This document shows, one piece after another, positions 1,541 through 1,983 of a stretch of DNA of 27,684 nt (within the stretch, counting starts at the first letter, position 1; every line of letters begins with the position of its first letter). The notes beneath the pieces were generated by a model. It was not told the DNA's origin, did no database searches, and worked only from the letters and a program-made list of their open reading frames with translations. A program made the translations under genes and the position numbers. Origin of the DNA: a virus (lineage: Duplodnaviria; Heunggongvirae; Uroviricota; Caudoviricetes); IMG/VR virus record IMGVR_UViG_2562617057_000002; one strand, 5' to 3'.

Positions 1541-1908
1541 AGCCTCACCTCCGCAAATAACGGATGGCGTAGTTTTACACTGAGAAATGAAAGGGATTTG
1601 AAAAGAAAAAAACGCAAAAGCGGGCGAAACGATATATACAGTAAGGAAAGCACTCTATCCAACAAACCACCCACAGTTAATCGGAATAAAAGCAGAGTGC
1701 TTATGAATGATCGCACGCCCGAAGGTTAGTATTTCTGCACAGCAATTTTGCAAAAAAGGCGATCATTCATAACGCAAACGTCTTTCAGTCACTCCGGGCT
1801 TTCCCATCATCGCAGACTGAAAGACTTTAACTTGAGCGGCAGCGGGAATCGAACCCGCATCATCAGCCTGTAAGGCTGAGGTAATAGCCATTATACGATG
1901 CCCGCATA

Positions 1909-1983
1909 TGGTGCCGACTACCGGAATCGAACTGGTGACCTGATGATTACAAGTCAGTTGCTCTGCCTGCTGAGCTAAGTCGG
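1909..1983 (-). tRNA. tRNA-like gene, anticodon UGU (Thr) by loop position; anticodon stem only 3 bp
   Basis: Reverse complement GCCGACTTAGCTCAG...CTTGTAA...GGTCACCAGTTCGATTCCGGTAGTCGGCACCA: perfect 7-bp acceptor stem, D-arm, T-loop TTCGATT, encoded CCA; anticodon stem ACTGA/TCATC has two mismatches. Confidence 0.5.

Follow-up and report, generated by a model that had tools for sequence, protein, structure and literature searches.

A thrU-like tRNA-Thr(UGU) gene in a defective lambdoid prophage as a putative nuclease-resistant replacement tRNA, beside a probable glyT pseudogene

The window analyzed here is the whole of a 27,684-nt viral record (Caudoviricetes; IMG/VR IMGVR_UViG_2562617057_000002). 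ARAGORN, which the original prediction had named as a check, calls four tRNA-like genes in it, all on the minus strand, between a Q-like gene and a holin gene. The first gene of the cluster (2065-2141) is of the tRNA-Ile2 type with anticodon CAU (ARAGORN Met/Ile2(CAT); Rfam tRNA, 70.5 bits), and PGAP labels a sequence identical to it tRNA-Ile. The second is tRNA-Arg(UCU) at 1987-2063 (ARAGORN Arg(TCT); 56.4 bits), and both genes are thus present as had been claimed from the sequence. They are followed by a tRNA-Thr(UGU) gene that reads as a copy of thrU (1909-1984; ARAGORN Thr(TGT); 59.5 bits) and by a fourth element at 1832-1905 (48.5 bits), which ARAGORN calls as Val(TAC) at 1834-1905 and which we describe below as a probable glyT-derived pseudo-tRNA with a "Val(UAC)" anticodon. 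All four score above the gathering threshold of 29 bits for the Rfam tRNA family (RF00005), and the spacing within the cluster is 1 to 3 nt.

The Q-like gene, the terminator-like hairpin, the 11-bp inverted repeat and the holin gene that flank the cluster lie on the same minus strand. Upstream, the gene at 2348-3010 matches Pfam DUF1133 (1e-100) and is Q-antiterminator-like, with a Phage_antitermQ match at E = 7.7e-6, just above the curated cut-off. A terminator-like hairpin, AACCCGC-CATTGA-GCGGGTT followed by TTTTTAT, can be read from the sequence just upstream of the tRNA genes (2228-2252); it is conserved in relatives, and a simple terminator scan gave no flag there. Because the layout resembles the order of pR', terminator, tRNA genes and holin in phage 21, we regard this hairpin as a candidate tR'. 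Downstream of the cluster, the first lysis gene encodes a class II holin (1325-1540; assigned from the ORF list and the annotation of homologous loci), and past it lie a lysozyme gene and an Rz gene interrupted by an IS element. An 11-bp inverted repeat, GTCTTTCAGTC ... GACTGAAAGAC, with a 25-nt loop begins a few bases past the fourth element (1780-1826), is invariant across all aligned relatives and is possibly an RNA processing or stability hairpin. The gap between the cluster and the holin gene holds a second conserved inverted repeat, ATGAATGATCGC/GCGATCATTCAT (12 bp, 44-nt loop, 1703-1770).

The element that carries these genes is clearly a defective lambda-like (Rac-like) prophage. IS21 istB (34-552) abuts the truncated Rz gene, IS66 tnpA/B/C occupies 3958-6537, IS110 lies at 11653-12849, and IS4 (20617-21963) lies upstream of a truncated recE. 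Rfam matches to RalA, sok, sRNA-Xcc1 and the SraC/RyeA-SdsR/RyeB pair, together with the integrase gene, are found at 25338-25516, 8306-8480, 19143-19232, 27078-27222 and 25874-26950, and the abutment of the integrase gene on the ryeA/ryeB locus suggests that the prophage integrated there. Two further Rfam matches, Plastid-ycf2 on the antisense strand of the tRNAs and YrlA, were sub-threshold and were discarded. The window is a mosaic, with 1780-2200 identical to prophages of the CFSAN029787 type and 1400-1779 matching FDAARGOS_944, and its coverage in complete E. coli genomes does not exceed 66%. No Toprim, OLD or PARIS gene turned up among ten chosen ORFs, most of them the largest, that were scanned with Pfam; the only matches were to IS transposases and to replication, recombination and integrase genes.

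With its tandem tRNAs lying between the Q/pR'-tR' region and the late genes and an Ile2(CAU) gene in first place, the cluster belongs to the ileZ-argN-argO type of lambdoid tRNA cluster, which in Stx phages likewise lies between Q and the late genes. The comparison with ileZ-argN-argO proposed earlier holds for the first two genes, as Ile2 and Arg are 88-90% identical to ileZ and argN, but not for the rest of the cluster: ileZ-argN-argO has argO, whereas the third and fourth genes of the window are copies of thrU and glyT. The ileZ-argN-argO set is usually explained by rare-codon supply.

On the evidence of their alignments, the third and fourth genes originate from host thrU and glyT, the tRNA genes of the tufB operon. 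The mature K-12 sequences are 95% identical to the genes in the window and 100% identical to those of aligned relatives (AMSHJX01, PhiR47_1 and Stx phage phi467). This match to the host is limited to the mature tRNAs, the flanks being unrelated, and the arrangement differs as well: tyrU and a 116-nt spacer separate thrU from glyT in the K-12 operon (thrU-tyrU-glyT-thrT-tufB), and 3 nt separate the two genes in the prophage. This origin had been missed by the original prediction, which left the three-base-pair anticodon stem of the third gene unexplained; its suggestion of decay in the fourth element stands. The module is abundant: in approximately 500 of the 5,426 complete E. coli genomes, a prophage cluster, usually with the annotation Ile-Lys-Thr-Gly, spans 80% or more of the region. 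Among the IMG/VR matches listed, 74 of 118 thrU copies (compared over positions 1-43) and 66 of 116 glyT copies are exactly those of the host.

The third gene is identical to K-12 thrU at 72 of 76 aligned positions and, by this measure, is a phage-borne copy of the host gene. It differs only at U16C (1969), U20C (1965), G42U (1943) and U43C (1942), and it remains a member of the Rfam tRNA family at a score lower than the 73.8 bits of thrU itself. As had been claimed, its acceptor stem is fully paired (7/7), its anticodon is UGU, and its anticodon stem (ACUGA/UCAUC) is reduced to 3 bp, because A27.C43 and C28.U42 are both mismatched. The T arm, which had been called perfect, contains an A52.C62 mismatch that host thrU has too. 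In place of the CAG at positions 40-42 that forms the 3' CNG motif of thrU, the gene has CAU, and C28 is left unpaired. It keeps both C28 and C40 as well as the stretch U36-A-A-U-C|A41. The bases G1-C72, C2-G71, G35 and U36, which we take to be the ThrRS determinants, are intact. MFE folding is a weak guide here, as authentic thrU itself folds as a non-cloverleaf by MFE.

The altered positions can be set against recent work on two tRNA-cleaving defense systems. OLD of phage P2, the effector of P2-lambda interference, makes two cuts in thrU, one after C28 and the other after C40 (Govande et al., NAR 2025, PMC12445682). Both cuts fall inside paired, pseudo-palindromic CNG motifs at positions 28-30 and 40-42, so that the anticodon arm is detached and the cell is killed (PMC12445682). 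Phage tRNA-Thr(UGU) genes, including that of phage 21, rescue cells from OLD, but overexpressed host thrU does not (PMC12445682). Resistance requires an altered CNG motif and a shortened stem together, as with U43A, which loses the 27:43 pair; neither change alone suffices (PMC12445682). The tRNA-Thr of HK446 is likewise resistant (PMC12445682, bioRxiv 10.64898/2026.07.10.737580); it is identical to the phage 21 gene and sits in the same slot of pR', terminator, tRNA and holin. In published tRNA-seq data, the tRNAs lost to OLD are Thr(UGU), Gly(UCC), fMet, Val(UAC) and Pro(UGG), of which Thr and Gly are named first, and a published northern blot shows that the phage tRNA substitutes for the cleaved host tRNA and does not inhibit OLD. 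AriB of the PARIS system, which has thrU among its prime targets, cuts between positions 40 and 41 of Lys(UUU), Thr(UGU) and Asn(GUU) (Belukhina et al., PMC12409363), and U16>C in tRNA-Lys impairs this cleavage, thrU likewise having U16 (PMC12409363).

Two observations on related clusters touch on the same targets. Related lambdoid clusters contain, in addition, Lys(UUU) or Asn(GUU), the targets of PARIS. The second gene of the cluster, which in the window is Arg(UCU) with the loop CUUCUAA, appears on the same body with the loop CCUUUAA as "Lys(UUU)" in approximately 490 related prophages, and this form (L003:3095-3171; L005:3095-3171) has an unusual C33 and a changed discriminator. Since Lys(UUU) is the prime target of AriB and a substrate of OLD as well, the Arg/Lys difference may reflect anticodon switching on an Arg-type body.

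The closest functional parallel to the third gene is the tRNA-Thr(UGU) of phage 21 and HK446. The annotated order in phage 21 (pR', terminator, tRNA-Asn, tRNA-Thr, holin) is that of the window, and the two Thr genes agree in anticodon and in their slot between the late promoter and terminator and the holin. Both also combine a shortened stem that lacks the 27:43 pair with an altered paired CNG motif. The phage 21/HK446 gene, however, has a body diverged throughout and the stem GUCGC/GCGAA, whereas the body of the window gene is that of thrU with four substitutions. Unlike the phage 21/HK446 gene, it loses both 27:43 and 28:42 and keeps C28 and C40, and its resistance is a prediction. A second parallel is offered by T5, whose tRNA-Lys, tRNA-Thr and tRNA-Asn carry substitutions at nuclease contacts, U16>C among them, replace the cleaved host tRNAs and thereby neutralize PARIS AriB (PMC12409363, PMC11464382). 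T5 is virulent and carries a large array of tRNAs, whereas the window holds a lambdoid prophage allele that keeps the AriB site U36AAUC|A41, and the effect of U16C is known from tRNA-Lys and not from thrU (PMC12409363). Taken as sequence, the third gene would represent a new allele of the rescue-tRNA type, one built from thrU by minimal changes and not a diverged phage tRNA.

We propose that the third gene encodes a nuclease-resistant replacement tRNA, a reading to which we assign a probability of roughly 0.6. The gene has the sequence features of the anti-OLD class, being a phage-encoded UGU tRNA with an altered paired CNG motif (28-30/40-42) and a lost 27:43 pair, and by the published two-factor rule of altered CNG plus shortened stem it is predicted to resist OLD. 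G42U destroys the 3' half of the paired cleavage motif and leaves C28 unpaired, and U43C removes the 27:43 pair and, with G42U, leaves the 3-bp anticodon stem. U16C is a D-loop change matching the AriB-impairing substitution in tRNA-Lys; we assign no role to U20C. The gene would be transcribed with the late and lysis operon and matured as a normal threonine tRNA, and it would keep decoding ACA after amputation of host thrU, as the tRNA-Thr of phage 21 and HK446 does. Against resistance we count the rarity of the allele and its retention of C28, C40 and the AriB site, and the two adjacent mismatches could simply impair the tRNA.

The distribution of the allele bears on whether these changes are more than damage. 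Twelve IMG/VR contigs carry UC at positions 42-43 (AAUCAUCAGG), and at least six allele backgrounds are represented among them. The gene order of their clusters is Met-Lys-Thr-Gly, Thr-Gly, Met-Thr-Arg-Gly or Met-?-Thr-Arg(CCG)-Gly, and in 11 of the 12 contigs the UC allele adjoins an intact Gly(UCC) gene. Stx phage JLK-2012 and a prophage of E. albertii have the allele too, and a second prophage of strain CFSAN029787 carries the identical Thr allele directly upstream of an intact glyT copy. A related "CC" variant occurs in contig L032. We considered the possibility that the seven lineage-specific changes that separate the window from FDAARGOS_944, its nearest intact relative, form one 118-nt mutational patch, and rejected it because the same Thr allele stands beside an intact glyT copy in the second CFSAN029787 prophage and beside an intact Gly gene in 11 IMG/VR contigs. 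An origin as the chromosomal thrU of another enterobacterium was rejected after a scan of 185,579 species-representative genomes, in which the only occurrence of the UC allele within the Enterobacteriaceae was the E. albertii prophage, with none in an enterobacterial chromosomal thrU. Because it recurs in the 12 contigs on at least six backgrounds, in JLK-2012 and in E. albertii, usually beside an intact Gly gene, the allele appears from its distribution to be maintained or recurrent in phages and not a product of decay.

The individual positions follow a similar pattern. In an unbiased IMG/VR sample, among the 118 phage thrU copies listed, U16C occurs in 31 and U20C in 27, positions 43 and 42 are substituted in four each, and every other site has at most three substitutions; the window allele is changed at all four of these hot sites. 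By this comparison, its four changes fall at positions linked to nuclease recognition or at the sites most variable among phage copies. The UC type is rare, making up approximately 2.5% of the phage thrU copies sampled among these matches, and the exact Thr allele of the window is present in 8 of 5,426 complete E. coli genomes.

Several related genes are of separate interest. The Thr genes of JLK-2012 (L195:1495-1570) and E. albertii (L208:5553-5628) are chimeric, with positions 1-26 as in phage 21/HK446 and the remainder, the anticodon arm and 3' half, of the window type, which implies recombination inside tRNA genes; ARAGORN makes no call for the E. albertii copy. Two metagenomic viral contigs with larger clusters, of the Met-?-Thr-Arg(CCG)-Gly architecture (L012:10454-10527; L017:3220-3293), contain a tRNA-like gene to which ARAGORN gives a two-base "anticodon" (cg) and no amino acid. 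Matches in Victivallaceae and Lentisphaeria are unrelated cellular tRNA-Thr genes that pair G27-C43 but share the C/U28.U42 mismatch. These cellular tRNA-Thr(UGU) genes, from Victivallaceae, Lentisphaeria and Verrucomicrobia MAGs (L200, L202-L207, L210-L213), have the stems GCUGA/UCAUC or GUUGA/UCAUC, and the natural pyrimidine-pyrimidine mismatch at 28.42 in the Victivallaceae tRNA indicates that such a mismatch is compatible with function.

The principal alternative is that the third and fourth genes are redundant copies of host tRNA genes simply decaying in a cryptic prophage, so that the 3-bp stem would be neutral or mildly deleterious and play no role in defense. The setting invites this explanation: the prophage is defective, the host retains its own thrU and glyT, other phage copies carry scattered single lesions, the Thr allele is rare, and the Arg gene of the sister contig L007 is in ongoing decay. 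Nonetheless, the adjacent double substitution recurs on at least six backgrounds, in several architectures and different phages and nearly always with intact neighbors, and no other stem-breaking change recurs likewise among the IMG/VR matches listed. Moreover, the positions altered are those shown by experiment to govern OLD cleavage (PMC12445682). We therefore consider decay of both genes a doubtful account of the locus as a whole, although, as described below, decay does seem to apply to the fourth element.

The fourth element is identical to E. coli glyT at 71 of 75 positions in an alignment with K-12 and intact prophage copies, an identity too high for a chance match. It departs from glyT by C35A (1871), A38G (1868), the loss of one C from a CCC run (CC at 1838-1839) and a change of CCA to CAA (A at 1833). 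The T arm (GCGGG-UUCGAUU-CCCGC) and the anticodon arm (UCAGC-CUUACAG-GCUGA, anticodon UAC) are exactly as first read from the sequence, and the acceptor is indeed defective and without CCA: its 3' strand is UGCCGC in place of UGCCCGC, one base short, leaving the helix bulged or mismatched, and the gene ends in U-CAA, not U-CCA, with U as discriminator. To our knowledge, all E. coli tRNA genes encode the 3' CCA. The element still belongs to the Rfam tRNA family (E = 1e-7), at a score below the 64.9 bits of glyT and its intact copies. The A38G change creates a C32:G38 pair that closes the anticodon loop, and MFE folding, with the caveat given above, replaces the cloverleaf seen for intact glyT by a structure in which the acceptor helix is gone and a 7-bp anticodon stem closes a 3-nt loop.

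These features fit neither of the tRNAs for which the element might be taken. Its body is that of glyT and shows no homology to tRNA-Val(UAC), its acceptor helix is irregular, it has U and not A73, and it encodes no CCA; the "Val" call stems from the single anticodon substitution C35A. A functional tRNA-Gly(UCC) of the glyT type would have C35/C36 in its anticodon, the pairs G1-C72, C2-G71 and G3-C70, and U73-CCA; as such a tRNA the element is compromised by C35A, the acceptor deletion and the CCA>CAA change, the middle base of the anticodon being a GlyRS determinant. We consider it likely that the element is a decaying glyT copy, a pseudogene, in agreement with the earlier suggestion of a decaying tRNA: four lesions at functionally critical positions have accumulated in a prophage lineage that is riddled with IS elements and in which a second tRNA gene is decaying too. 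The Gly copy would have lost its function through the anticodon change, closure of the loop by C32:G38, the bulged acceptor and the loss of CCA. The exact allele is present in 8 complete genomes, where PGAP labels it tRNA-Val with no pseudogene flag (NZ_CP011416.1, 544697-544767, and seven others, at least eight in all), which is probably a mis-annotation that inflates tRNA-Val counts.

The four changes may not be alike in their effects. Neither C35A nor the acceptor deletion occurs in other phage glyT copies among the IMG/VR matches listed (n = 116), and a search of IMG/VR for a donor of the variant half of the element found only one contig, of the same lineage. On the other hand, A38G recurs with the UCC anticodon kept in JLK-2012 (L195:1574-1648), E. 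albertii (L208:5632-5706), L139 and L165, and CCA>CAA recurs in otherwise intact glyT-like genes (L158, L165, L169), so these two changes, rather than being lesions, may be variants that are tolerated or under selection. The allele is also carried by IMG/VR contig L007, and it stays the same although the flanking background differs between the window, CFSAN029787 and L007. The Arg gene of L007 (L007:2950-3024; UViG_2537561620_000012) has three extra lesions, namely an acceptor mismatch, a T-stem change and CCA>CTA; as these are confined to the Arg gene and the flanks are nearly unchanged, mutations appear to cluster inside redundant tRNA genes.

That constancy across three backgrounds, the recurrence of A38G and CCA>CAA in other phage glyT copies and the missing pseudogene flag are what might be expected if the fourth element were functional, either as a glyT body re-targeted to GUA that replaces OLD-depleted tRNA-Val(UAC) or as an uncharged decoy that binds the nuclease. 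Val(UAC) is among the OLD targets, A35 and C36 are the main ValRS determinants, and the literature includes the suggestion that phage tRNAs act as decoys. We nevertheless judge either function very unlikely. A bulged acceptor that is one base short, U in place of A as discriminator, the lack of CCA and a loop closed by C32:G38 all speak against a working tRNA, and the element would remain sensitive to OLD because its anticodon stem keeps the paired CNG motif of glyT. The UAC match could itself be chance, since one of the nine possible single anticodon changes yields an OLD-target anticodon, and the published northern blot, showing replacement of the cleaved tRNA and not inhibition of OLD, argues against a decoy. 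About as slim is the prospect, raised in the original prediction, of a processing element, here a handle recognized by RNase P or RNase E, that frees the 3' end of tRNA-Thr or punctuates the late transcript before holin: the element does lie 3 nt from the Thr CCA end with its T and anticodon arms intact and is followed by a conserved hairpin, but relatives carry a fully intact glyT in the same position, making a special processing element unnecessary, and RNase P would have to read a damaged acceptor stem. It is comparably improbable that the whole cluster is an anti-OLD/PARIS array evolving from captured host genes, in which the fourth element, recoded to UAC, supplies tRNA-Val or acts as its decoy after CCA addition; were this so, Thr, Gly and Val functions would all derive from two captured host genes.

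The replacement reading proposed for the Thr gene does not extend automatically to the module of which it is part. Codon supply is a live alternative for the module, which as a whole may exist for that purpose, because most copies are identical to the host genes and published data indicate that such copies are unprotective.

Two studies from 2025-2026 traced killing by P2 OLD to amputation of the thrU anticodon arm and showed that only a resistant phage tRNA-Thr rescues the cell. The Thr gene of the window would be a natural minimal case of such a tRNA, consisting of thrU with a two-base change at positions 42-43 and two D-loop changes, and since the allele is host thrU plus a few changes, resistance can be tested on an otherwise identical background. 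On the practical side, the RefSeq tRNA-Val entries for the glyT remnant probably need correcting. More broadly, the Thr(UGU)-Gly(UCC) prophage module, present in approximately one in ten E. coli genomes, is composed of the two tRNAs named first among those depleted by OLD, and the range of copies, from host-identical to mutated, suggests an evolutionary route from gene capture to escape.
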